Positions 1 to 14,948 of a stretch of DNA of 64,000 nt are shown in pieces. This stretch comes from an uncultured Spirochaetota bacterium (lineage in GTDB: Bacteria; Spirochaetota; Spirochaetia; SZUA-6; Fen-1364): contig CAWGAA010000003.1 of assembly GCA_963820525.1 (NCBI GenBank), positions 224,001 through 288,000 of the forward strand, given 5' to 3'. The notes under the pieces were generated by a model. It was not told the origin of the DNA. It saw nothing but the letters and a program-made list of their open reading frames with translations, and made no database searches. The translations under genes were made by a program, and so were the position numbers. Each line of letters starts with the position of its first letter. Position 1 is the stretch's first letter.

Positions 1-3000
1 CCATCACGTCGTCTTCTCCGAAGATGGCGTTGACCGTTCCATCTACCGAGTCCAGAGTTAGGCTCAAGCTGGATGGGACTTCGACAATTCCCGTTAAGGT
101 CACGGGGCCTGTCCAGTACTCACTTGTGAAGAGCGTACCGGCCGTTGTGTTATGAACCTCTACAGGGATGCTTGCAACCTGGCTCTTACCCCAAAAATCG
201 CTTACTGTGAGCTTCAGCGTATAGCTGGTCTGCTGATTCCTTCCAAATTGGAAGTACGCCGCTGTGTTCCCCGCATCCGGCCATGCAAAGACCACTTTCT
301 GTTGATCCGAGAAGTCGATCGGGCTTCCTCCGCCCAGATTCCAGGAGTACGTAATGGGGTAATCTCGCTCTTCGTCTTCCACTCGAACAAGTTTCTCCAG
401 GGTGAGCGGCGCCCCTGGCGTTGTCATAACGCTTGCTCCACCGCCCGCTATCGAAACCGCCGGCGCCGCGTTGAAGCGGAGCACATCTCCCATCGTCGTT
501 TTATTGCCGTAGAGATCGGTCCCAATTACGCTAAAGTCCGCCGTACCGGGCCCCGAAACCGTCACGGTGCCATAGGAGTTGATTGATGTATCCGACGAGC
601 CCGGCGGCCGTCCATTTTTCGTCACGGGCTGTGAGCCGTACAGGGCGCTGTTCACGGAGAGCTCGAATGCAGTGCCCTCCTTCCCCGAGGTGAACGTAAG
701 CATCTCCGCCTGTTCGTTGGTAAGCGCATTCCCGTCTCTTTCTTTTAGAACTGTATTGGAATAGATCAATCCGAGCACCGGAGCCGTCCAATTGATATCC
801 ACCTGGTACTCGCTTGCTATCGCGGGGCCCCAGTCCTCAGTGCCGTTCCGGAACCGAACGAAGGCGTAGTAGCTCCTCTGTTGGGATGCGCGCTCTATCC
901 CCACACCCGCCGTACTCCAATCGACGGCCGGAAGATTGTCGGCTATGGAAACGGGGAGGGTTGCCATGCTCCAATCAGGATCAAGGTCCATTGATAGCAT
1001 AGTCTGGTAGGCTAGCAGGCCGCTTTGGCTGTCCTTGGCCGCTAGCGTCCACCCATCAATTACTCCCGTATTTCCCGAAGCGTTGCTATATCTGCTGGCA
1101 CGAGATATGGAGATGCCGCTTGCCGGAGTTTCGTCGACCAGAATCGTCTCACTGGGCGTTGTAACGCTCCAGATTCCCGTTCTGCTCTGCGCCTTCACCT
1201 CGAGGGCAAGCGTCTGTCCGTCCACCGGGATCATATGCGCATCCGATATCATCGCCGTATAAGGAGCTTTCCACTCGGTGTTCGCCATTCCCCTGTAGTC
1301 CGAGGTCCAGTCCTGGAGAATCTGCCCCGTGAAGGCATCAGTAAGCTTCCACTGGATCTGCTGCACACTTCCTGGACCCTTCACCGGAGTGTAATTAACC
1401 GCTTTCACATTGAAGTGGTCGCTAAAGTACTTGGTGTATTTGAAATCGGCCAGCACAGGTACAGTGGTGCAGATCGTCATGGAAACAGTTTTTGATCCGC
1501 CCAACCCCAAAGCCGTTACTGGCCATACGGTCGCGTGAATCTCATCTCCTTCTTTGTAGCCCAACTCCTTCCAACTGCCGCTCCAAAGCTTCTGCGTTTG
1601 CACGATCGGAGTCTTGTCCCCGATTATGAGCTGGTAGTTCTGAATGAAGTCCGAATCGCTATCGACTTGCCAACTGAAGCTCACCGAGTTTTCGCTTAAG
1701 TTCATCTGCAGAGCAGCGATCGCGGGGAAGCTACCTTCGGCCCTGAAGGCGGGACTGTAGAGCACGCTCTCGTTTCCCGCATTGTCCACCGCATGGCCCT
1801 TGAGCATCCAGATCGAGCCTACCTGAGCCGTCTGTGAGCCGGACCCCAGAGAAAGAGCCGGCGAATATTGTAGCTGTGCGGCCGATATGTTGGAGCCTTC
1901 AACCGGGTCTCCCACCGCGAGGAAACCTGTAGCATTATTCCAGGTCCCTGCCTGAACGTCAAAACCCTTGAGCCCGGATTCGTAGTCACCTGAATCTACC
2001 TGGCCGAGGACCGATGGCGGACTTCCAAGCGCTGTAAGCTGTACGTGGCCGGCGATCGCCGTTTTTACGCCGCCGCTCGACGTAACGGCGATCACCGTAT
2101 TGACCCACGGCGCTTTGCTGTCAAGAACGACCCCCCTGCTGTAGCCCACACTCTCAAGGCCCACCCCGTTCACCGCCTTGACCGCGAAGAAAAGCACTGT
2201 GCCGTCGGAATATGTCCCCGAATCGGACCCGTACCTCAACTGCGAGAAATCCAATCCGCTTACCGAGGTTCCTCCGCTCACCTGAGTCCAGGGGTTCGTT
2301 GTAAGCTCGCCTGTATTCGTGTATGCCTTCCAGTAATACTTGACGGTGCCGCTTTCAGGGTCCGGCGATGTGAAGTTCCAGTTGAAACTCAAAGTCTGGT
2401 ATCGGCTGCCCAGCGGATCGCCCTGCACACCGCTTGGCTTGTAGCGAACCGCCTCCGCCATCGGCATCACAAACGGAGCCGGCGGCGCGGTGCCGTCTAC
2501 AATCATGATCCCGCTTTCCTGCGTTGTGGTAAGCCCGGCCCCATTTTCAACGGATACTTCCACTACAATCCGGTCCGCGGTCGCAACACCCCCCGTCCCG
2601 CTCAAGTCGATATCAAGCCGCTGCCCTGCTGCCTCGATGGACGCGAGGTTATCCTGCCTCACAAGCGCCCACGCCCAGCTCCCATCGGGCTGAATAACCG
2701 AACGCTTCACCAACACGGTGCCTCCGGTGGCCCCGGATTGCGTATCCGACCCCGTGAATGTTAGCCACACGTCATTCGGTGCCACATAGACGGGAACGGC
2801 GGTGAGCGCCACCACAGGCGGTGTCGTGTCGACCACACTCCCCGCGCTTGTCACATCCGCAAGCACATTGCCGTCGGCGTCGAAGGCCTCCACCTCCACC
2901 GCAACGGATTCCCCGTCGCTGAGCGTGACGCTCGAGGCCTGCGTCGTAACATCCAGGTCCAGTATGGTTGATGTCGTTTGCTGTTGGACGCTCCAATCCC

Positions 3001-6000
3001 GAAGGGCCGCCCTGTCGCCTAGTCGAATCCAACGGTTGGCATAGCTTGCTGGACTTCCCCCTGCGTACCCCCAGCGTGCCACTATCTTGCCGGTTCCCGC
3101 GTTGAAGTTCTGATTGTTGACGAAAAGCCCGGTGCCGGACACCGTCATCACGATCGGCGATGCGCTCACTGAGATTCCCGAGCCGCTTGTCGCAGTGAAT
3201 ACAACACTAAACGTTCCCGCAGATGGGATGACGATATCGCTTCCCGGACGGTACCCCTGGCTTTCACCCGCTCCCGTGGCACCGAGGCTCTGATACGACC
3301 AGCTCCATTGCACTGTTCCGCACTGGTCCGTTGCCGCTGTATGTACCTGGATGCTCTGCCCTACGATAAACTCGCTTCCCACAATCGAGGCCGTGACCCC
3401 CTGCGGGCCGATTCCATCCTTGATAAACACCGGGCTTGAAAGCACCGGACCCACAACGTCGTTTGCGTTTCTCACCTGAAGCTGCACTCTGTAACACTGC
3501 CCATCACTGCTTATGCGGCTTCGAACCTCCTCGAACGTCTGGCCCCACTGGCTCCACTCATCGCCATTCTCCTGGGCAGTCCCGTTTTGTTCGACAAGCT
3601 GTACATTCCACCGCGCGTCTTTCACCGGGTTTGCGCCGCTTGTATCCGTTGGAACATAGCTCACCGAAAGATCCGATGCCTGCCGAATCCAATTGCGACC
3701 CGAGGCGTTTCTCATTCCGCCTACCGACAACGCCACGTCCGGCCCAGCCGCCGAATACCTGACGGCCCAAGCGCTGCTGCCGGAGGCCGGCCATTCCGAA
3801 CTGTTCCCGGCCTTATCCGTCAGCTTTATGTGCAATTTTCGAACGCCGTCTTGCGCCCCCGCGAATGTCAGAGAGTAGGTGTCTGTGGAATGGGGAACAT
3901 CGAAAAGCGCTGTTGGAACGGGCGAAACAACCGCCGCCGTCCATACCGACGTCGTTGGCGCCTGACCTTCGGTCCACTGGTATGCCGCTTCCGCAAGACC
4001 TGCCCCACCGTTCTCGTTCACCTCGATGACCGCCGTGATGGCTCCGTCCGCTCCGACATACGTGTTTCCTTCGGGGTCCGTCTCTGAAGTCACAAAATGG
4101 AAAGAGTTGGCCACCAGAACCGGCGGGGTTGTGTCCAATACCTTTGGTATCGCAGATGTGTTGAATTGATTTCCTGCATTGTCCTCCGCGATTACCTGAA
4201 TTGAATACTGCTCATCTGCAAGCGGAAGAGGGAAGTTGAAATTTCCCGCTGAATCGAAACTCACTGACTGGGGATCAACAAACGATTGGGTGCTGCCCCC
4301 CACAATTGGAGCCCAGCTTACCTTGACGCTCCTTAGCCCACTCCCTTCGGTATTATCACTGGCCGTCCCGGAGACCGTCTTTGAGTTCGTGGCAACGTTC
4401 GCGCTTGCCATCATCCCGGAAAAGGTTATCTGCGGTGGATCGACATCCCAATTGATGTTTCCGAAGGACAGCTGCTTGTAAGCATTAAGATTACTTGGGA
4501 CAGAAAAATCGGCAGGCTCTGTATCGATCCATTCGTCAAGCTTGATGAGAATCTTATTTGACTGGAGGACACCCTTGAGCTGGCTCAGTGAGTTGGTATT
4601 CGAGTCCAACTTACACATCTTCCATAAGTTATAGTCGCAAATAAGGTCATAAATTGGATCCGTTTCTTGACCGGATACGTTAATCGACGGTGTAATCGTC
4701 TGCTTTTCATAGGAGGTGGATGTGCTAAACTCACCATGGCCGTTATCAATCCCAAGCTCGAATCTGTAGTGGATGGTGTTGCCGTCCTCCGTTTGGATAA
4801 GAATATTGTGTTGGGTTAGCCTCGCTTTGGCTCCAAGCCACTGTGTTCCCAGGGCCAATTGCGGCAATGATGAGTATGGCACCTGGTATGATAGTGCCGC
4901 TGGTGCCTCGATCCGGATGTTTTGAGTGATGTTCACGTTTTCGGTATGGCCTGGGTCCGCCGTAATTTCGATGTATGGTTCATAATAGACTGTTTTCCCC
5001 GCTATCAAGTCGCTGCTATAATAGGGCGTCGCTCCTTGTACTTTTACACAGTCACTGTTTGGAGAGAGTTCAATCCCAGTTGCGTTGGTTACCTCAGTTG
5101 CCGGATTGGCGATGCAAGTGCCATCCGTTCCTATTCCCCACTTCAAGCCCCGTGTTCCGTTGCCTATTGTCTGATTCTGCCAGAATATTCCTGAAAGCGC
5201 TCCATCAAATGGCTGACGCGCCGGCGCCATGAAAGGCCCTGCAGAGCCCCACTGGGGTTTGAAGATCCGTACCGTCTTGGAAATCGAAGGCTTCCCAGTC
5301 TCGTCTTTAGCCTGAACGATCAGTTTACGGCTGTTTTCCGCGCCCCAGGCGAAAACGTAGCTTGCGCAACTGCTCACCAGATTAAGCTCTGTTGAAGTAT
5401 TTGCCGTCAAATCCGTGATCTCGATTTTGTAGCTCGGAAGTGTAGACAGTGTAGAATCGAGCTCCGAGTCTTGGTATCTAATGATTAAGGTGTCGGAGGC
5501 GAGTACTGAAGGAACTTTATCAGCCAGTAAACCCCAAAACCCGTCATCTTTGAGACTCCAAGCGTCGGAATCACCATACTTGCGTTCGAGCATCGAAAGA
5601 CTGACGGGGCTAGGTTGGGCCCGATGGAGAGAAAAGGTTATGGTTCCGGTGCTGAACATCCCCGAGGCATCCGTAAGTTTGTATTTGAGCGTATAGGGTC
5701 CGTCAGTAAAAGAATGTCCATTAGCGTCAGTGAAAGGAATCGCAGCAGTGTACTTCCCGCTGCTGTCGACTGCGAAATCTATTGCTGCGCTGCTATAGGA
5801 TACTGTCGCGTCATTGCGCTTGAGAGAGGTGACTTCTACTTTTTGGGGAGGCGCGTAGCAGCCAGCGCTGTAGGTTTTAGTAATGAGGTCCTGGTTAAAT
5901 GATAAAATTAAATGATCTGCGTTGATTGGTTTGGTGGGATCGAGTTCCATGTCTGCATTATTAGTAAATAAGTCAGTATATCTTTTATTCTGCGCGCCAA

Positions 6001-7618
6001 GTGAAATTGCTACATTATTTCCTGTGATCGTGTATATAGATGCTGACGTGTTGCCTGCATTATCGGTGGCTGTGATTATATATTCATAAGCTCCGGTAAT
6101 GGGTGTAAAGCTGGTGGCATCACCTGTGATGTCATTGCCGCTCTTTGTATATTTATAACTAATTGATTTGAAGCCACTAGTGGTATCTGTCGAAGAGAAC
6201 CCCACCGACCCATGAACATAATAGCTGCCGCGCGGTATCCATCCGCTTGGTGGAGTTATGATGGGCGAATATCGATCGATTTTTATATTCTCATTAGGTG
6301 ATTCAGGAAGTATTTTTTCATTGCCAACAGCATCTTCTGCCTTGAATCGAATACTGTATTTACCATCTAAAAGCACAGTATCAAGCCACGTAGAAGGACG
6401 TGTTCCTCCTCCAAGCGAGATCCAGTCTTTTTGATTCAGGTGTCCCTCCCGAGATACCTCAAGTCCAGCACCTAACGCGTCTGTAGCGGAGATTGCAAGA
6501 GGGTGATAAGCTTCAAATCCGAACCAAGCCGAATTATACCAGCCCGTTGTGCTGTCAGGTGGTGGTATTATAATATCAGGAGCGCTAGCCAGTATTTTTC
6601 GATATACTGTTATATTATTGTCCGCTTGATTACCAGCAGCGTCTTTCACTTTGAAGGTGAGGGTATATACTCCAGAATTGCCTGCTGAAAAAGACGCAGT
6701 TGCAGTTGTATTATTTGCCGGATTGCCATCATTTAGAGTTAGGTCTTTAAATGTGCGAGAAGCATTATCCTTATCGACATACGTTTCATCATATGTGAAA
6801 CAGGATACAATAAACCCACTTCCATCAGAGTTGTCCGTAGCTTGCAGCGTTATTTGATCCGATGATTTCCCAGGTGGAAGCCGACCATATTCGTCCGGTG
6901 CCGGCGAAGAGATAATTGAAAGAGATGGCGGTACTTTGTCGATAGTGGTTACTCTATAGTCTGTTGGATCACTGATATTTCCAACTTTATCTATTGCGCG
7001 AAACCAAACTGTGGTCTTATTCTCGGTTACAGTGCAACTATCGCCAGGGGACCAATTCGTATCACCTTGGATCTTATGTTCATACCCATACAAGCCCGAT
7101 CCAGTGTCTGTGCTTATTCCAGTGTTCTTTACTACCACCTTATCATTAGTCCAGGAGTCTGGGGATATTGTTATATCTTCAAGGAGCGGCGCTGTTGGTT
7201 TGGTTGTGTCGCTTATGAAAGTAAAAGATTCATGAATAATGACATATGTATTGAGCCCCATATGTGCTATTATTGAAATAACAAGGTTTACGTTACCAAA
7301 AACAGTAAAAGGCACATCTACAGTATTCGCGTCATCGTCCACATAAGTAGGGGGATGCAGTGTCCCATCGGGCCTGAAGACATAACAACTATACCATGGT
7401 GTATCCAAGCCAGGGTCTTCGTCTTTCTGAAAGCGAAATCCAAGCGATGAGCCCTTATAATAGTAAGTGTTTGCGTCGATTGCAGAAAGATTATCGCTGA
7501 GCGCAATGAGCCTTACGTAATAAAGATAACTTGAAGGGGAGCCATTATAGATCATTGTATCAGCAAAACTATATGACACTGAGAAAAGTACTACCAAGAT
7601 TACCAAAACTTTCTTCAT
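1..7618 (-). CDS. Giant secreted/cell-surface protein with repeated Ig-like beta-sandwich modules (>2539 aa, 3' end beyond window)
   Basis: ATG at 7618 gives a signal-peptide-like MKKVLVILVVLFSVSYSFAD. Spot translations near 7450, 5250, 4100, 3270, 800 and 1-60 are all open in the same frame. Recurrent DTTPP-type and 'D.AGN' Ig-like motifs. Missing from the ORF track, as expected for an ORF with no stop in the window. Confidence 0.85.
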   Translation of the reverse strand, partial: MKKVLVILVVLFSVSYSFADTMIYNGSPSSYLYYVRLIALSDNLSAIDANTYYYKGSSLGFRFQKDEDPGLDTPWYSCYVFRPDGTLHPPTYVDDDANTVDVPFTVFGNVNLVISIIAHMGLNTYVIIHESFTFISDTTKPTAPLLEDITISPDSWTNDKVVVKNTGISTDTGSGLYGYEHKIQGDTNWSPGDSCTVTENKTTVWFRAIDKVGNISDPTDYRVTTIDKVPPSLSIISSPAPDEYGRLPPGKSSDQITLQATDNSDGSGFIVSCFTYDETYVDKDNASRTFKDLTLNDGNPANNTTATASFSAGNSGVYTLTFKVKDAAGNQADNNITVYRKILASAPDIIIPPPDSTTGWYNSAWFGFEAYHPLAISATDALGAGLEVSREGHLNQKDWISLGGGTRPSTWLDTVLLDGKYSIRFKAEDAVGNEKILPESPNENIKIDRYSPIITPPSGWIPRGSYYVHGSVGFSSTDTTSGFKSISYKYTKSGNDITGDATSFTPITGAYEYIITATDNAGNTSASIYTITGNNVAISLGAQNKRYTDLFTNNADMELDPTKPINADHLILSFNQDLITKTYSAGCYAPPQKVEVTSLKRNDATVSYSSAAIDFAVDSSGKYTAAIPFTDANGHSFTDGPYTLKYKLTDASGMFSTGTITFSLHRAQPSPVSLSMLERKYGDSDAWSLKDDGFWGLLADKVPSVLASDTLIIRYQDSELDSTLSTLPSYKIEITDLTANTSTELNLVSSCASYVFAWGAENSRKLIVQAKDETGKPSISKTVRIFKPQWGSAGPFMAPARQPFDGALSGIFWQNQTIGNGTRGLKWGIGTDGTCIANPATEVTNATGIELSPNSDCVKVQGATPYYSSDLIAGKTVYYEPYIEITADPGHTENVNITQNIRIEAPAALSYQVPYSSLPQLALGTQWLGAKARLTQHNILIQTEDGNTIHYRFELGIDNGHGEFSTSTSYEKQTITPSINVSGQETDPIYDLICDYNLWKMCKLDSNTNSLSQLKGVLQSNKILIKLDEWIDTEPADFSVPSNLNAYKQLSFGNINWDVDPPQITFSGMMASANVATNSKTVSGTASDNTEGSGLRSVKVSWAPIVGGSTQSFVDPQSVSFDSAGNFNFPLPLADEQYSIQVIAEDNAGNQFNTSAIPKVLDTTPPVLVANSFHFVTSETDPEGNTYVGADGAITAVIEVNENGGAGLAEAAYQWTEGQAPTTSVWTAAVVSPVPTALFDVPHSTDTYSLTFAGAQDGVRKLHIKLTDKAGNSSEWPASGSSAWAVRYSAAGPDVALSVGGMRNASGRNWIRQASDLSVSYVPTDTSGANPVKDARWNVQLVEQNGTAQENGDEWSQWGQTFEEVRSRISSDGQCYRVQLQVRNANDVVGPVLSSPVFIKDGIGPQGVTASIVGSEFIVGQSIQVHTAATDQCGTVQWSWSYQSLGATGAGESQGYRPGSDIVIPSAGTFSVVFTATSGSGISVSASPIVMTVSGTGLFVNNQNFNAGTGKIVARWGYAGGSPASYANRWIRLGDRAALRDWSVQQQTTSTILDLDVTTQASSVTLSDGESVAVEVEAFDADGNVLADVTSAGSVVDTTPPVVALTAVPVYVAPNDVWLTFTGSDTQSGATGGTVLVKRSVIQPDGSWAWALVRQDNLASIEAAGQRLDIDLSGTGGVATADRIVVEVSVENGAGLTTTQESGIMIVDGTAPPAPFVMPMAEAVRYKPSGVQGDPLGSRYQTLSFNWNFTSPDPESGTVKYYWKAYTNTGELTTNPWTQVSGGTSVSGLDFSQLRYGSDSGTYSDGTVLFFAVKAVNGVGLESVGYSRGVVLDSKAPWVNTVIAVTSSGGVKTAIAGHVQLTALGSPPSVLGQVDSGDYESGLKGFDVQAGTWNNATGFLAVGDPVEGSNISAAQLQYSPALSLGSGSQTAQVGSIWMLKGHAVDNAGNESVLYSPAFRAEGSFPAIAALQMNLSENSVSFSWQVDSDSDFIQNYQLIIGDKTPIVQTQKLWSGSWKELGYKEGDEIHATVWPVTALGLGGSKTVSMTICTTVPVLADFKYTKYFSDHFNVKAVNYTPVKGPGSVQQIQWKLTDAFTGQILQDWTSDYRGMANTEWKAPYTAMISDAHMIPVDGQTLALEVKAQSRTGIWSVTTPSETILVDETPASGISISRASRYSNASGNTGVIDGWTLAAKDSQSGLLAYQTMLSMDLDPDWSMATLPVSIADNLPAVDWSTAGVGIERASQQRSYYAFVRFRNGTEDWGPAIASEYQVDINWTAPVLGLIYSNTVLKERDGNALTNEQAEMLTFTSGKEGTAFELSVNSALYGSQPVTKNGRPPGSSDTSINSYGTVTVSGPGTADFSVIGTDLYGNKTTMGDVLRFNAAPAVSIAGGGASVMTTPGAPLTLEKLVRVEDEERDYPITYSWNLGGGSPIDFSDQQKVVFAWPDAGNTAAYFQFGRNQQTSYTLKLTVSDFWGKSQVASIPVEVHNTTAGTLFTSEYWTGPVTLTGIVEVPSSLSLTLDSVDGTVNAIFGEDDVM

Positions 7619-10069: not shown

Positions 10070-11073
10070 TCAGGAAACAAGCGCCGGGAGTCCGAGGGAG
10101 TCAAAGAAAGCATTCGGTAGCGCACGGGTCAGAGCGGGGCTGTTGCTCAGCCTCCATGGTCCGTGCGCACTCCCTACCGTCTCTGCGGCAAGGTCTACAC
10201 TGATCCCCCGGTTCCTTAGCTCTTTGAAGCGGATCTTTCCACGCCTCCACTGCTTCCAGAGGAAGCAGCGCAGCCGCCTTCGGGTCCACCCGTCCAACGT
10301 GCTGAGTATGCTGGGGGTCTCGCAGAATCCGAAGTAGCCCCGCCATCCGATCATGTACCTGCGAAGCTCTCCTATCATCCGCTCGATACTGATTCCGCGT
10401 GTTCGCCGCGTCAGCTCACGAATTCGTTCCTTGAAGCGGAGGATGGATTGGGGCGCCATACGCCTCCTGATCACCTCCCCGCTGGTGAAGCTGAATCCGA
10501 GAAACTTCCGATTCCTTGGCCGCGCCACCGCGCTCTTTGATTCGTTCACCTTGAGCTTGAGCCTTCGAGTGAGAAAGCGCTTCACGCCTTCCATCACCCG
10601 TTGACCCGCTCGCTCGCTCTTCACGTAGATATTGCAATCATCCGCGTAGCGAACGAAACGGTGTCTGCGTTGCTCCAGCTCTCGGTCTAGCTCGTCGAGC
10701 AGCAGGTTGGAAAGAAGGGGGGAGAGGGGTCCGCCTTGCGGCGTGCCTTCCCCCGTCGGTCCCACTAGTCCGTTCTCCATCACTCCAGAGTTCAGAAACC
10801 CTCGGATCAGTTTCAGCATACGCTTGTCACTGATCCTTTTGGCTACGCGACTCATCAACACGTCGTGGTTCACACGGTCGAAGAACTTCTCCAAGTCAAT
10901 GTCCACGACCCAGTCGTAGCCTTGCTGGATGTACTCTTGCGCCTTCACCACTGCCTGGTGTGCCGATCGCCCAGGCCTGAATCCGAAGCTGAACTCGCTG
11001 AACGTGGGGTCCCACCGCTTTTGCAGCACCTGCAGCACCGCCTGTTGCACGAATCGGTCTCCCACCGTCGGGA
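10070..11073 (-). pseudogene. ltrA: Group II intron RT/maturase, C-terminal part (interrupted)
   Basis: PTVGDRFVQQA, SFGFRPGRSAHQA, DLEKFFD, GTPQGGPLSPLLSN and YADD motifs followed by a maturase X domain. Confidence 0.93.
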
Positions 11074-11094
11074 CGGTCAACGCTAAACGCACTC

Positions 11095-11385
11095 TTGCAC
11101 AACGCCGATTTGGGATCGGCCAAAGTCACCCACCCCTTCCATCCGCTCCGTCACCAAAGCTTTAAAATCCTCAAGACACGGAAGGTCGCAGGAATGGATA
11201 CCCTGATCCTTCAAGGAACTGAAAATGGTACATTCGCCGTTCCTCGGGAATGGACCGATCAAGCAGACCCATGCCTATTCGATTCACGCAAACGAGCTGT
11301 CCCTATCTTCTCCTTCTCCTGTCTCCGAGAGTTGCTCGACCTGGTCGATCGAATTGGGAACGGAAAAAATTGCGAAAGGTATTGA
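11095..11385 (+). CDS. DUF5372 (Y4bD-like) small protein; probable true start lies at the other end of the element (14564)
   Basis: VTHPFHPL and VPREWTD motifs. Only a TTG without an evident RBS is available locally. Confidence 0.7.
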   Translation: MHNADLGSAKVTHPFHPLRHQSFKILKTRKVAGMDTLILQGTENGTFAVPREWTDQADPCLFDSRKRAVPIFSFSCLRELLDLVDRIGNGKNCERY

Positions 11386-11436
11386 CAAATGCATAAAGCC
11401 TTAGTAGAATCTGTACAGTTTATTAACTGTACAGAT
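11382..11436 (+). promoter_or_regulatory. Near-consensus sigma70 promoter with overlapping operator-like palindrome
   Basis: TTGACA(11382-11387)-17 nt-TAGAAT(11405-11410). Perfect inverted repeat ATCTGTACAGTT-TATT-AACTGTACAGAT (11409-11436) reaches the ATG at 11435. Confidence 0.8.
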
Positions 11437-11776
11437 GAACCTACAGGAAAAATCGACAACCTTCTTACGAAGAAGGCGAACCTCCCTCCTCACCCAGGTA
11501 GCCGCTATCGACCCCCACATCCTCCGTGGCTCTCTCATCGAACGCTACATCCGTTGTGGAAAACCAGAATGCAAGTGCGCACGGGGCTCTGGTCATGGCC
11601 CCAAGTACTACCTGTCCGTCAGTTATCCCGATCAGAAACCCCAGCAAGACTACGTTCCTCAGCAATTCCAGAAACTCGTTGTACAGTCTCTCGCCAACTA
11701 CCAAAAACTGAAAACCCGCATAGAAACCATTTGCGACATCAATCGGGAACTCCTGCGAAGGAGGGAAGAGTCCTAA
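11435..11776 (+). CDS. DUF6788-like small Cys/His protein
   Basis: RGSLIERYIRCGKPECKCARGSGHGPKYYLS signature; 113 aa. Confidence 0.8.
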   Translation: MNLQEKSTTFLRRRRTSLLTQVAAIDPHILRGSLIERYIRCGKPECKCARGSGHGPKYYLSVSYPDQKPQQDYVPQQFQKLVVQSLANYQKLKTRIETICDINRELLRRREES

Positions 11777-12337
11777 ACCACCCCCGACTTAAGTCGGGGG
11801 GTTTGCGCTTGTCGGCTAAAGCCGACTGGGGCCGACATCACGGTTCTACTTTGAAGTCGGCATCTTGGTCCCGCTCTGTGTCCTGCTGATTCTCGATGTA
11901 GCGGGCGATCATCTCTTCGGTCACGTTCCCTGTGCTCGCCACGAAATACCCGCGGGCCCAAAGATGCCTGCCCCAGAATGTTTTGTTCAACCCTTTGTTT
12001 TCCATGAGCAGCTTCCGTGATGTCAGCCCCTTCATGCGCTGCACGAGCCTGGATACCGATAGAGTCGGCGGCACGCTCAGCAGCAGATGCACGTGATCGC
12101 GGCTGATGTTCCCTTTCACGATCTCTACGTCCAGGCTCGCGCAAATCATTCGTATCAGATCTCTTACGCGGGTTCCTATCTCTTTCCCCAACACTGGCTT
12201 GCGGTACTTGGTGATCCACACTATATGATACTTCAAATCATAGACGCAGTGCGACGCTTTTCGATACTGCTTCATCGTACCGCAAGCCTACTAAAGTCTT
12301 CGTCTAAAGACGAGGGGGTTTCTCCCCGTAGGAGACT
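11773..12337 (-). mobile_element. IS200-type element (tnpA only), 565 bp
   Basis: Subterminal hairpins CCCCCGACTTAAGTCGGGGG (~11781-11800) and CTTCGTCTAAAGACGAGG (~12298-12315). Both junctions carry CTAA (TTAG on the tnpA strand). Confidence 0.85.
11838..12275 (-). CDS. tnpA: IS200/IS605 family Y1 (HUH) transposase
   Basis: YHIVWITKYRK, DHVHLL (HUH), LWARGYF and RYIENQ motifs. Confidence 0.95.
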   Translation of the reverse strand: MKQYRKASHCVYDLKYHIVWITKYRKPVLGKEIGTRVRDLIRMICASLDVEIVKGNISRDHVHLLLSVPPTLSVSRLVQRMKGLTSRKLLMENKGLNKTFWGRHLWARGYFVASTGNVTEEMIARYIENQQDTERDQDADFKVEP

Positions 12338-12471
12338 CTAACAGATGGATGCCTCGCTCTCCAGCCAGATTCCCGTCGATATCGAGGCCGTCGCAACAAT
12401 CCTGGCCAATATGCTCCATGGTCATTTGGCTACGAGCAAAGGTTGCACGATGGATCTTTGGGAGGATATCG

Positions 12472-14541
12472 ATGATGACGAAAATCACTGCGACCCATAC
12501 AGACCGAATGGCGTATGTCTACCTGCGCCAATCGACCATGGGGCAGGTCCTCCACCATCAGGAGAGTACCGAAAGGCAATATGCTCTGAAGAACCGCGCC
12601 TTGCAATGCGGTTGGACGACAGACAAAATCAGAGTCTTGGATGGCGACCTGGGCATCTCGGGCGCCCACATGACCAATCGGGAGGACTTCAAGTCCTTGG
12701 TCGCGGACGTCTCCCTGAACAAGGTGGGGGCGATCTTCGCCCTAGAAGCCTCACGACTGTCCCGTTCCTCCAACGATTGGAATCGCCTCTTCGAGTTGTG
12801 TTCACTCACCGATACTCTGATAATCGACGAGGACGGATGTTACAACCCCACCGATTTCAACGACCAGCTGCTGCTGGGCTTGAAGGGGATGATGTCGCAA
12901 GCCGAATTGCACTTCATCCGCGCCCGCCTCCAAGGGGGAAAACTGAACAAGGCCAAGCGAGGGGCGCTTCATTTCCCCCTACCCGTCGGATACTGCTACG
13001 ATGAGGAAGGCACGATCGTTCTGGACTCCGACGAGGAGGTCCGCAGTGTCGTGAAGCTTATGTTTGATACATTCCAGCAGACCGGTAGCGGCTACGCGGT
13101 TGTCAAAAAGTTCACCCATCTGAACCTGAAGTTTCCCAAACGTGCCTACGGAGGAGTCTGGAAGGGCAAGCTCATCTGGGGACGACTGACATACGAGCGA
13201 GTGCACGGTATCCTGAAGAACCCTTCCTATGCGGGCGTGTACGTGTACGGACGCTACAAATACAGAAAAATCCTATCGACAGACGGCGGCATTTGCTCCA
13301 AAATAGAGTCCGTGCCGATGTCCCGCTGGCAGGTGACCATCAAGGACCATCATGAGGGCTATATCAGTTGGGATCAATTCCTTCACAACAACATGATCCT
13401 GCAGCAGAACCAGACCAACGGGATTGAAACGATGCTCCCTTCTGCTGCCAGAGAGGGAATCGCCCTTCTTCAAGGCATGCTCATTTGCGGAATCTGCGGG
13501 CGACGCCTGACCGTCCGCTACCAAGGCAACGGGGGGCTCTATCCCATCTACGAATGTAACTGGCGCAGACGGGAAGGGCTGGCGGATAAATCCTGCATGA
13601 TGTTCCGCTGCGATATCGCCGATGAGACAATAAGCGTACGCCTCCTCGAAGTATTGAAGCCGGAGCAGTTTGAGCTCGCGCTGAAGGCGATGGAAGAGGT
13701 CGAGAATCGGAACAAGGCGATTGATGCGCAATGGCGTATGAGAGTTCAAAGGGCCGACTACGAAGCGTCCCTGGCCCAAAGGCGATATGAAGAAGTCGAT
13801 CCGTCCAATCGCCTGGTCGCATCCACGTTGGAGAAACGCTGGAATGAGGCTCTCATAAACCTCGAGCAGGTCAAGCAGCAGCATCGGGAGTTCAGCCAAA
13901 AAGAGCAGATGGTAATGACTTCTGAGCAACGGCAGAAGGTATTCGCTCTGGCGCTGGATCTGCCACGTCTTTGGAAGGCGCCAACGACCCAGGCAAAGGA
14001 TCGAAAGCGCATCCTCAGGTTGCTTATCAAGGACATCACTGTTCAAAAGCTTGCCGAACCGAAAAAGCTCATCTTGCACGTGCGCTGGCAGGGGGGTGCC
14101 ACGCAAGACATCTCATGCGATTTGCCTCCAAAGGCGTGTGACAAAATCCGGTATGGGCAGGAGATTGTCCAGAAGGTCAAAGATCTCGCGAAAAATATGC
14201 GAGATGATCAAATAGCCGAGGTATTCAATAAAGAGGGACTGATCAGCTCGAAAGGAGGACAGTTCACGGAATCTAAGATACGTAATATCCGGAGTACCCA
14301 TGCTATTCCCTCGCCCAAACTGAAACATCCGGAAGAACTCACTATCAAAGAAGTCGCCGACAAGTTTAAGGTTAGTACGCAGGTCGTCTATTATTGGATA
14401 GAACGAGGATATGTGACAGCTCGAAAAACGAAGTATGGGTTACCGTTCTGGATCACACTTAAAAACCAAGATGAAGAAATACTCCGAAGACGTGTCGCTG
14501 AGTCATATAAACTCAACGAGGTGAAAACTTCACATTCCTAA
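12472..14541 (+). CDS. Large serine recombinase (resolvase, recombinase, Zn-ribbon/coiled-coil domains) with C-terminal HTH
   Basis: AYVYLRQST catalytic Ser motif, EASRLSR, ILKNPSYAG, LLQGMLICGICG. C-terminal LTIKEVADKFKVSTQVVYYWIERG. GGAGG RBS precedes ATG 12472 (ORF track start 12349). Confidence 0.93.
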   Translation: MMTKITATHTDRMAYVYLRQSTMGQVLHHQESTERQYALKNRALQCGWTTDKIRVLDGDLGISGAHMTNREDFKSLVADVSLNKVGAIFALEASRLSRSSNDWNRLFELCSLTDTLIIDEDGCYNPTDFNDQLLLGLKGMMSQAELHFIRARLQGGKLNKAKRGALHFPLPVGYCYDEEGTIVLDSDEEVRSVVKLMFDTFQQTGSGYAVVKKFTHLNLKFPKRAYGGVWKGKLIWGRLTYERVHGILKNPSYAGVYVYGRYKYRKILSTDGGICSKIESVPMSRWQVTIKDHHEGYISWDQFLHNNMILQQNQTNGIETMLPSAAREGIALLQGMLICGICGRRLTVRYQGNGGLYPIYECNWRRREGLADKSCMMFRCDIADETISVRLLEVLKPEQFELALKAMEEVENRNKAIDAQWRMRVQRADYEASLAQRRYEEVDPSNRLVASTLEKRWNEALINLEQVKQQHREFSQKEQMVMTSEQRQKVFALALDLPRLWKAPTTQAKDRKRILRLLIKDITVQKLAEPKKLILHVRWQGGATQDISCDLPPKACDKIRYGQEIVQKVKDLAKNMRDDQIAEVFNKEGLISSKGGQFTESKIRNIRSTHAIPSPKLKHPEELTIKEVADKFKVSTQVVYYWIERGYVTARKTKYGLPFWITLKNQDEEILRRRVAESYKLNEVKTSHS

Positions 14542-14581
14542 AGGCTGATATAGGAGGTGCAGTATGAATACACCGTCGGGA

Positions 14582-14948
14582 TGCCGAGTTTCCTCGTGCC
14601 TCCTCCCGCCTTGGGTATCTCCACTCGTCTCACGGGCTGGGGCTTGTACGCGCCCGCAATAAGCTGCTCCTTCAGTCGCGGCCAGTTCTCCCGCAGGAAC
14701 TCAGGTAGTTCCTTGACGCTCATGCCGTCAATCCCTGCCGCCCCTGCGTTGGCTTTCACGCGTCTCAGTGCTTCCTTCAGGTTCTCCTTCTCGCATGCCT
14801 CCTCGATCAGCTTGTCCGTGTTCGCTTGGCTTTCCGCGCTGAGTTTCGCCGTCGTGGATTCGATCCCTTTCTTGGGCGTCACAGGGGCTTCACCCCTTGC
14901 CTCGCCCTCGAAGGCCAGTTCATGCTGGATTTTCTGTCGCTTGTCCAC
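14582..14948 (-). pseudogene. ltrA: Group II intron RT/maturase, N-terminal part (interrupted)
   Basis: NLKEALRRVKANAGAAGIDG and YKPQPVRRVEIPKAGGGTRKLGIPTV; similarity stops at the att core. Confidence 0.92.

Follow-up and report, generated by a model that had tools for sequence, protein, structure and literature searches.

Within the 64,000-nt window analysed here, a stretch of contig CAWGAA010000003.1 from an uncultured Spirochaetota bacterium, a large serine recombinase (LSR) has driven the insertion of a 3,508-bp element (bounds 11063–14581) into the gene of a group II intron reverse transcriptase (RT)/maturase. The subject of this analysis is a small gene of the DUF5372 family at the left end of the element, which is probably complete only when the two element ends are joined, as they would be on an excised circle.

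The element and its recombinase

The insertion is flanked by an 11-bp direct repeat (repeat family D13), the two copies of which are identical and make up the attL core (11063–11073, plus strand, crossover GG at 11070–11071) and the attR core (14571–14581, plus strand, crossover GG at 14578–14579) of the attachment (att) sites; the position of the crossover was deduced from the GG, CC and TT classes found among relatives together with the orientation of their insertions. The interrupted target lies on the minus strand, its downstream part (10070–11071, with RVT_1 and GIIM matches) ending at a break within the G-I-P-T codons and its upstream part, an N-terminal piece of the same RT, occupying 14582–14948; the corresponding minus-strand open reading frame (ORF) fragments span 10070–11092 and 14538–14948 (Pfam RVT_1 and GIIM). 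With one DUF5372 copy, the element is single-copy in the window's own genome.

Reading from the left, the DUF5372 gene body (11071–11385, plus strand) comprises 104 codons and a stop and matches Pfam PF17342 with 68.1 bits against a cut-off of 25, over profile positions 1–77 of 78. Its beginning coincides with the putative P' arm of attP (11072–11094, plus strand; a proximal GACGGT-type and a distal GCAC motif), which in frame forms codons 6–13 of the joined gene and was assigned from its symmetry with the P arm and from its equal offset in 58/58 left ends and 14 further ones. The body lacks a Shine-Dalgarno (SD) site; TTG 11095 is the earliest canonical start in its frame, which continues without a stop leftwards across the 11-bp repeat. 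Its stop is overlapped by the -35 box of the sole strong sigma-70-like promoter (11382–11410, plus strand; TTGACA, 17 nt, TAGAAT, 11/12 matches), which is directed away from DUF5372 and toward the DUF6788 and LSR genes. A perfect, operator-like 12-bp inverted repeat (I12, 11409–11436) lies between the -10 box and the start of the DUF6788 gene (11435–11776, plus strand), the variable middle gene of the family, which encodes 113 amino acids (PF20586, 92.1 bits against a cut-off of 27.2).

At the right end, the LSR gene (12472–14541, plus strand, 689 amino acids) terminates with TAA at 14539–14541, and 11 nt past this stop the SD sequence AGGAGG (14552–14557) opens the putative P arm of attP (14552–14578, plus strand), which further contains GTGCA (14557–14561), ATG (14564–14566) and codons 1–5 of the joined DUF5372 gene. 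While the element is integrated, the ATG begins an ORF of only 32 codons (14564–14662) reading into antisense intron sequence, and when the ends are joined in silico the five right-end codons and the 104 codons at 11071–11382 yield a 109-amino-acid product. A first-pass annotation made from the letters alone had placed the LSR stop at 14541, AGGAGG at 14552–14557 and the ATG at 14564, coordinates that are all correct. Its estimate of a read-through of about 32 codons into the antisense intron, its 109-amino-acid in-frame product (5 + 104 codons) and its description of a DUF5372 ORF without ribosome-binding site upstream of the only clear promoter were likewise reproduced, the promoter at 11382–11410 pointing away from that ORF.

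The space between the DUF6788 stop and the LSR gene is taken up by a nested IS200/IS605-type insertion sequence of 569 bp (11773–12341, minus strand; PF01797) with its Y1 transposase gene at 11838–12275 on the minus strand, which parts the promoter from the LSR gene. It is marked by raised read depth and loose ends at 11773 and 12341, occurs in five identical copies in the genome, and is lacking in the close relatives L011–L013.

The LSR has the resolvase, recombinase and zinc-ribbon domains of its class. The catalytic domain (PF00239, 64 bits against a cut-off of 23.3) covers residues 14–165, with R19, Q20 and S21 invariant across 28 relatives, and is followed by PF07508 (64 bits) and PF13408 (39 bits), both above their cut-offs. 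An extra C-terminal region (14290–14541, residues about 607–689) is conserved in the 28 aligned relatives and gives weak helix-turn-helix (HTH) matches to MerR, HTH_17 and HTH_23, all below cut-off. Among solved structures, the SPbeta integrase YokA comes closest, with E 2.8e-12 across the catalytic and recombinase domains; it has also been solved as a fusion to its factor YotN. As judged from their sequence, the att sites are of the type used by such enzymes, namely imperfect inverted repeats centred on a 2-bp crossover, the asymmetry of which sets the orientation.

Ends, crossover and frame among the relatives

Of the loci recovered by DUF5372-seeded searches, 8 lie on genome contigs and 72 on metagenome contigs. 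Because they were retrieved by a DUF5372 peptide pattern, the set is biased toward DUF5372 carriers, and all counts below have to be read with the caveat that the loci are related and not independent trials. DUF5372 invariably comes first and the LSR gene last, with DUF6788 or no gene between them. Where 1.5 kb or more of downstream sequence was available (50 loci), the LSR gene is present in 47 and DUF6788 in 36; the 14 loci without the latter are two-gene elements, in which DUF5372 is the sole accessory protein. Element size across the family is about 2.7–3.5 kb, that of a minimal integrative element. The position of the promoter is conserved in most relatives, where the -35 box overlaps or abuts the DUF5372 stop (L011–L068 region). 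An inverted repeat of 10–14 bp after the -10 box, the two arms of which covary between clades, accompanies DUF6788 and is missing from the two-gene elements; owing to this co-occurrence it is more likely a site of the middle-gene product, i.e. a candidate operator. DUF5372 and the LSR gene are 260–280 nt apart in the two-gene elements, and in L004 this spacer contains an arginine-rich ORF of 83 codons (6316–6567), while L017 has a second, distant LSR gene (2596–4593, 37% identity) about 420 nt upstream of the element's left end.

Right ends were scored at the 41 loci with a complete LSR 3' end, the window included, with one start-codon candidate per locus. A start codon stands exactly 14 nt before the GG/CC crossover dinucleotide in 39/41 (36 ATG and 3 GTG, the latter all in one clade and GTG being the sole change seen at the ATG); the two right ends without it, L009 and L010, appear degenerate. 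An SD-like site is located 4–16 nt upstream of the start in 37/39. The distance from the LSR stop to the start is 10 to 23 nt, or the two overlap as ATGA in 8 loci, an arrangement found through a whole clade and also in three of the four plasmid loci with a TT core that are described below. In integrated copies, the ORF beginning at the right-end start is 7 to 299 codons long (median 28) and encodes no conserved product.

Left ends were first scored with a strict motif anchor, which missed 19 variant-motif loci that were then re-scored through an alignment, and 8 contigs were too short. With the strict anchor, 58/58 left ends carry the P' arm and the crossover exactly 61 nt before the first His of the HPFH motif. 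Scoring by alignment added 14 of the same geometry with zero indels, for a total of 72/73 scorable left ends, the sole non-fitting one (L072) being truncated and lacking the arm. Both ends have the same core in 36/37 elements, the exception being the apparently rearranged L077. Elements with a GG core are antisense to the target RT, which adjoins 33/37 of their left and 21/24 of their right flanks, and those with a CC core are sense to it (7/9 left and 5/6 right flanks). Since the orientation follows the core, as expected for an asymmetric serine-recombinase crossover, the GG/CC dinucleotide is taken to be that crossover. L059 and L010 represent the same element, with identical N-terminal regions, and have left flanks of opposite RT orientation, which together with the core mismatch of L077 suggests rearrangement between copies.

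In all 37 elements having both ends, the join is in frame and free of stops and places exactly 25 codons before the conserved His, and the first 29 joined elements already comprise 24 distinct junction peptides. Over the 44 distinct 60-nt stretches from core to domain, in-frame stops are absent (0/44), compared with 32/44 and 27/44 in the other two frames. On the basis of these counts, the recurrence of the geometry is judged to exceed chance. The first-pass annotation had conceded that a single frame match has a one-in-three chance of arising by accident and had proposed that homologues be circularised in silico; with the start motif in 39/41 right ends, the fitting geometry in 72/73 left ends and 37/37 joins in frame, albeit among related loci, both the ribosome site with its ATG and the frame prove to be conserved.

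Three database proteins represent the joined form itself. The N-termini called before the motif range from 2 to 90 residues among 94 family proteins, and in two of these, P0033 (on three contigs) and P0019, the motif is preceded by exactly 25 residues, which begin with the right-end peptide. A cluster mate, P0095 (171 amino acids), aligns to the right end with residues 1–70 and to the left end with residues 63–171; the former stretch takes in the ribosome site and start codon as well as the 3' end of the LSR gene, read in another frame. Because these proteins carry the junction N-terminus, contigs with an intact attP junction exist, and the joined form is accordingly present in nature, known from protein records alone, with which a circle, a tandem copy and a resident replicon are all compatible. 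Among the 80 collected contigs, none has the LSR gene directly followed by DUF5372. In run X3, a 151-nt contig of a sediment metagenome joins 11062 to 14571 without the element, with 8 differences in 86 letters; because of these differences it represents an uninterrupted target in a related intron and no proof of excision of this copy. The joined-form sequences and the empty target in a related intron are consistent with catalysis of attP x attB and attL x attR recombination by the LSR.

The same layout extends to distant plasmid clades. A tblastn search of plasmid records returned 47, mainly from rhizobia, Cupriavidus and Paraburkholderia, which label the product DUF5372 or Y4bD/Y4pK family or leave it without annotation. 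The copies in Cupriavidus oxalaticus X32 (L083) and on plasmid pBPHY02 of Paraburkholderia phymatum STM815 (L084) have the GG geometry, and their DUF5372 genes are annotated with a TTG start in one and a GTG start in the other. Four more distant copies (32–40% identity; Rhizobium tumorigenes, R. leguminosarum, Sinorhizobium and P. phenoliruptrix) all have a TT core and an HTH protein as middle gene, the target being an IS66 tnpB in R. tumorigenes and an IS21 istA in P. phenoliruptrix. In all four the start codon again lies 14 nt before the core, with the body in register. Of seven plasmid loci from cultured bacteria six fit the geometry, and for the seventh (L087) the right end was not found. 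The layout is thus kept over three crossover dinucleotides and three kinds of target at 32–40% protein identity. As to targeting, members of the family insert at the G-I-P-T codons in RT genes of group II introns, with the orientation set by a GG or CC crossover, and can be described as mobile elements aimed at conserved codons of other mobile elements. On the plasmids L083, L084 and L085–L090, near-identical DUF5372 genes are annotated with TTG or GTG starts or are not called; such inconsistent or missed calls fit a gene that has no real start in the integrated state. No match was found in phage records, and viral contigs contain one decayed integrated copy (L091).

Competing accounts of the split

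We hold it to be probable, with good though not full confidence, that joining across attP places the right-end ribosome site and ATG in frame before a DUF5372 gene without a start of its own, which would thus be an excision-dependent gene. attP would then sit inside the 5' end of the gene and integration would sever it between codons 5 and 6, so that in the integrated state the SD site, the ATG and five codons stay beside the LSR stop, with the start-less body upstream of the element's promoter. Excision of the circle by the LSR would rejoin the two ends, and a transcript from the internal promoter would, we infer, run in the order (DUF6788)-LSR-DUF5372, in agreement with the promoter-DUF6788-recombinase-DUF5372 operon that the first-pass annotation had predicted for the circle and with the conserved promoter position. 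DUF5372 may be translated right after the LSR or coupled to it, its synthesis would both report and depend on the free (attP) state, and at the circle stage the protein may act on att DNA or in concert with the LSR.

The evidence that the detached start is needed carries more weight than the counts from related loci and comes from both ends, the stop-start overlap with the LSR gene throughout one clade being part of it. At the left end, codons 14–19 past the core show third-position wobble (codon-position entropy 0.44/0.70/1.34) like the domain itself (0.67/0.51/1.54), which indicates that translation must begin upstream of them, and in 26/44 distinct left ends codons 0–14 contain neither ATG nor GTG nor TTG in frame, ATG being absent from 39/44. 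Because it lies upstream of the conserved promoter, DUF5372 has no obvious transcript in the integrated state. At the right end, GTGCA and ACCGTC are mirrored in both att arms, whereas the ATG is invariant in the P arm only, the mirrored positions being T, then A (0.55) and G (0.55), and the conservation of AGGAG is restricted to the P arm as well. Being conserved in the right-end arm only, the ATG and the SD site are not explained by the binding symmetry of the recombinase. The central claim of the first-pass annotation, that the gene is split, is therefore borne out by the start 14 nt before the crossover, by an SD site and ATG conserved beyond symmetry, by the lack of stops and by the three junction-spanning proteins, and the interpretation of DUF5372 as a state-dependent gene appears well supported.

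The alternative that DUF5372 is self-contained and starts in the integrated state from an internal TTG, GTG or ATG (TTG 11095 in the window), the right-end SD site and ATG being part of a binding site or a leftover, seems highly improbable. It would agree with a candidate start at the same codon in 9/9 members of the window clade, where TTG, ATG and GTG interchange, with a TTG at codon 13 that is common in other clades, with the choice of such starts by annotation pipelines and with an extension that lacks protein-level selection. Against it stand the 26/44 distinct left ends without a canonical in-frame start before the conserved residues, the lack of an SD site before the internal candidates, the location of the gene upstream of the element's promoter, the ATGA overlaps with the LSR stop, and a right-end ATG and SD site that are conserved beyond att symmetry, the ATG changing only to GTG. 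Somewhat less improbable, yet still unlikely, is that the split is real and serves no purpose, attP merely happening to lie in the gene and integration inactivating a gene that is needed or tolerated only on the free element. The geometry could persist by inheritance, as att arms resist indels, and a review on suicidal integrases offers in its account of archaeal integrase genes split by their own attP a precedent (PMC8371274). However, the layout has been kept across three crossover dinucleotides, three target kinds and down to 32–40% identity, the tight coupling to the LSR stop is maintained, and the elements contain 130–280 nt of intergenic DNA that could host attP.

A further account, also unlikely and yet the least so of these three, takes DUF5372 for a classical excision directionality factor, with integrated copies locked until a free copy helps in trans. 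It draws on DUF5372 being the sole accessory protein in two-gene elements (14/50 loci without DUF6788), on the rule that LSRs need such a factor to excise, as given in part of an LSR survey preprint (10.1101/2021.11.05.467528), and on the same analogy being drawn in a section of the suicidal-integrase review (PMC8371274). On the other hand, synthesis only on the circle would hinder re-integration of an element without replication genes, and no known directionality factor was among the top fold matches, though such factors are not known to share a fold. In the LSRs studied, a factor promoting excision at the same time inhibits the attP x attB reaction.

Several observations weigh against a functional, excision-dependent gene and call for caution. 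The first-pass annotation had looked to junction-spanning reads, and for this copy none was found: the four runs searched, as low-depth assembled contigs, contained no circle joint from 14581 to 11074. With an insertion sequence between the promoter and the LSR gene and a single copy in the genome, this copy may no longer move. Because the loci are related and att arms tolerate no indels, the constant frame is in part inherited geometry. Codons 0–13 past the core lack wobble (entropy 0.61/1.07/0.64 and 0.91/1.41/0.99) and residues 1–10 are disordered in the DUF5372 model, for which reasons the N-terminal extension seems to be kept open rather than selected as protein. In the window clade, codon 8 past the core, the position of TTG 11095, is a possible start in 9/9 members (TTG in the window, L011, L012, L013 and L015; ATG in L014, L016 and L017; GTG in L018), and since it is always start-like some low expression from the integrated state is possible there. 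The decayed copy L091 has an in-frame stop, and L077 has unequal cores, its left flank and core not matching its own right end. At the level of the protein, Foldseek with the DUF5372 model gave no match at E <= 0.001 and the fold match is generic; the proposed function is argued from logic.

Two further candidates were rejected: protein-level selection on the N-terminal extension, the codon-position pattern of which fits a DNA (att) constraint, and a fusion of RT and DUF5372 in the sense-oriented insertions, where, with the sequences read by eye, the frames are one base apart.

The DUF5372 protein and its place among known systems

The DUF5372 model (mean predicted local distance difference test score 80.5) is a small five-stranded barrel at residues about 14–66 followed by a C-terminal helix. 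A wide structural search returned generic SH3/KOW/Tudor/NdhS barrels (best Z 5.9); no solved relative was found by sequence (best E 1.6), comparison with PHROGs and NCBIfam gave none, and the protein atlas yielded no usable match. No known directionality factor was among the top fold matches listed. We know of no fold or sequence family common to recombination directionality factors. The family is basic, with a median isoelectric point of 9.35. Taken together, the model and the family suggest that DUF5372 is a small basic SH3-like protein and probably a circle-stage partner of the recombinase, a role suggested by its predicted synthesis only from attP, beside or coupled with the LSR. If the gene is excision-dependent as proposed, the likeliest single role, falling somewhat short of an even chance, is to favour re-integration or otherwise to set directionality; it is favoured because an excision factor made only after excision would hinder re-integration. 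Regulation, circle upkeep, a trans-acting excision factor and no adaptive role are the alternatives. A more specific proposal, which we regard as tentative and rather doubtful, is that of a state-wired directionality factor, made only from attP and coupled to the LSR, which would switch the enzyme to integration or block re-excision until integration destroys its gene and thereby resets the system.

The LSR directionality factors known from other systems include SprB of SPbeta, gp3 of phiC31 and gp47 of Bxb1. DUF5372 resembles them as a small accessory protein encoded with an LSR. The known factors, however, are expressed independently of the att state and promote excision, and neither by sequence nor by fold could DUF5372 be related to them; its predicted synthesis from the circle alone speaks for a role different from or opposite to theirs. 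In the G segment of phage Mu, inverted by Gin, and in the R64 shufflon, recombination sites lie within reading frames and the joined coding parts change. Those inversions swap alternative C-terminal parts of a host-range protein, whereas here excision and integration would attach or remove the translation start of the element's own gene.

The nearest parallel in architecture is archaeal. Integrases of the SSV1, pTN3 and pT26-2 type are termed 'suicidal' in the review cited above, parts of which describe how attP lies inside the integrase gene, which is whole only on the free circle, and call the splitting of a gene by its own attP exclusive to archaea (PMC8371274). By its predicted att sites, the element described here has the same split-by-attP architecture, with attP inside a gene, the split gene being DUF5372 and the LSR gene remaining intact. 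In both cases, as far as those parts of the review go, attP lies within a gene of the element, integration splits that gene and it is whole only when the element is free. The archaeal gene that is split, by the same account, is the tyrosine integrase itself, which falls into two large pieces, whereas the DUF5372 elements are bacterial, keep their serine recombinase intact and divide a small accessory gene that loses only its ribosome site, start and five codons. Promoters that form at the junction or depend on the state are presented for Tn4451/Tn4453 (TnpX), ICEclc (Pcirc) and ICEKp1 (P3'end) in part of another article (PMC13023037). According to that part, the joining of ends on the circle likewise activates a free-stage gene, and Tn4451 also uses an LSR. 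These systems, however, are described there as assembling or repositioning a promoter, while the DUF5372 element would assemble a coding sequence and its translation start under a promoter that is internal and constant. A junction-made promoter was not what was found, the strong promoter being internal at 11382–11410 and conserved, and the joined junction itself was not scanned.

The Y4bD/Y4pK proteins on plasmids of rhizobia and Burkholderiaceae belong to the same family with the same gene order and are annotated only as hypothetical. A full-text literature search turned up no paper in which DUF5372 or DUF6788 is named, nothing of relevance on y4bD and no description of the split DUF5372 layout, and a term search of the main text of the LSR survey preprint (10.1101/2021.11.05.467528) gave neither group II introns nor reverse transcriptase as targets.

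With a recombination site between the start codon and the gene body, the element would have a compact means of sensing whether it is free or integrated, where state-dependence in bacteria has so far been described at the level of promoters, at least in the parts of the sources cited here. This unstudied family is found widely, both in environmental bacteria and on plasmids from cultured rhizobia and Burkholderiaceae. Natural attP/attB pairs with defined crossover dinucleotides can be drawn from it, as can a candidate new partner protein for LSRs, which serve as genome-engineering tools, and the split layout of the family would account for inconsistent starts or missed genes in annotation pipelines. 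If the proposed state-wired factor is real, the elements would constitute a two-state toggle with the recombination site as sensor, and a widespread class of hyper-parasitic elements residing in conserved codons of group II intron RT, IS66 tnpB and IS21 istA genes.

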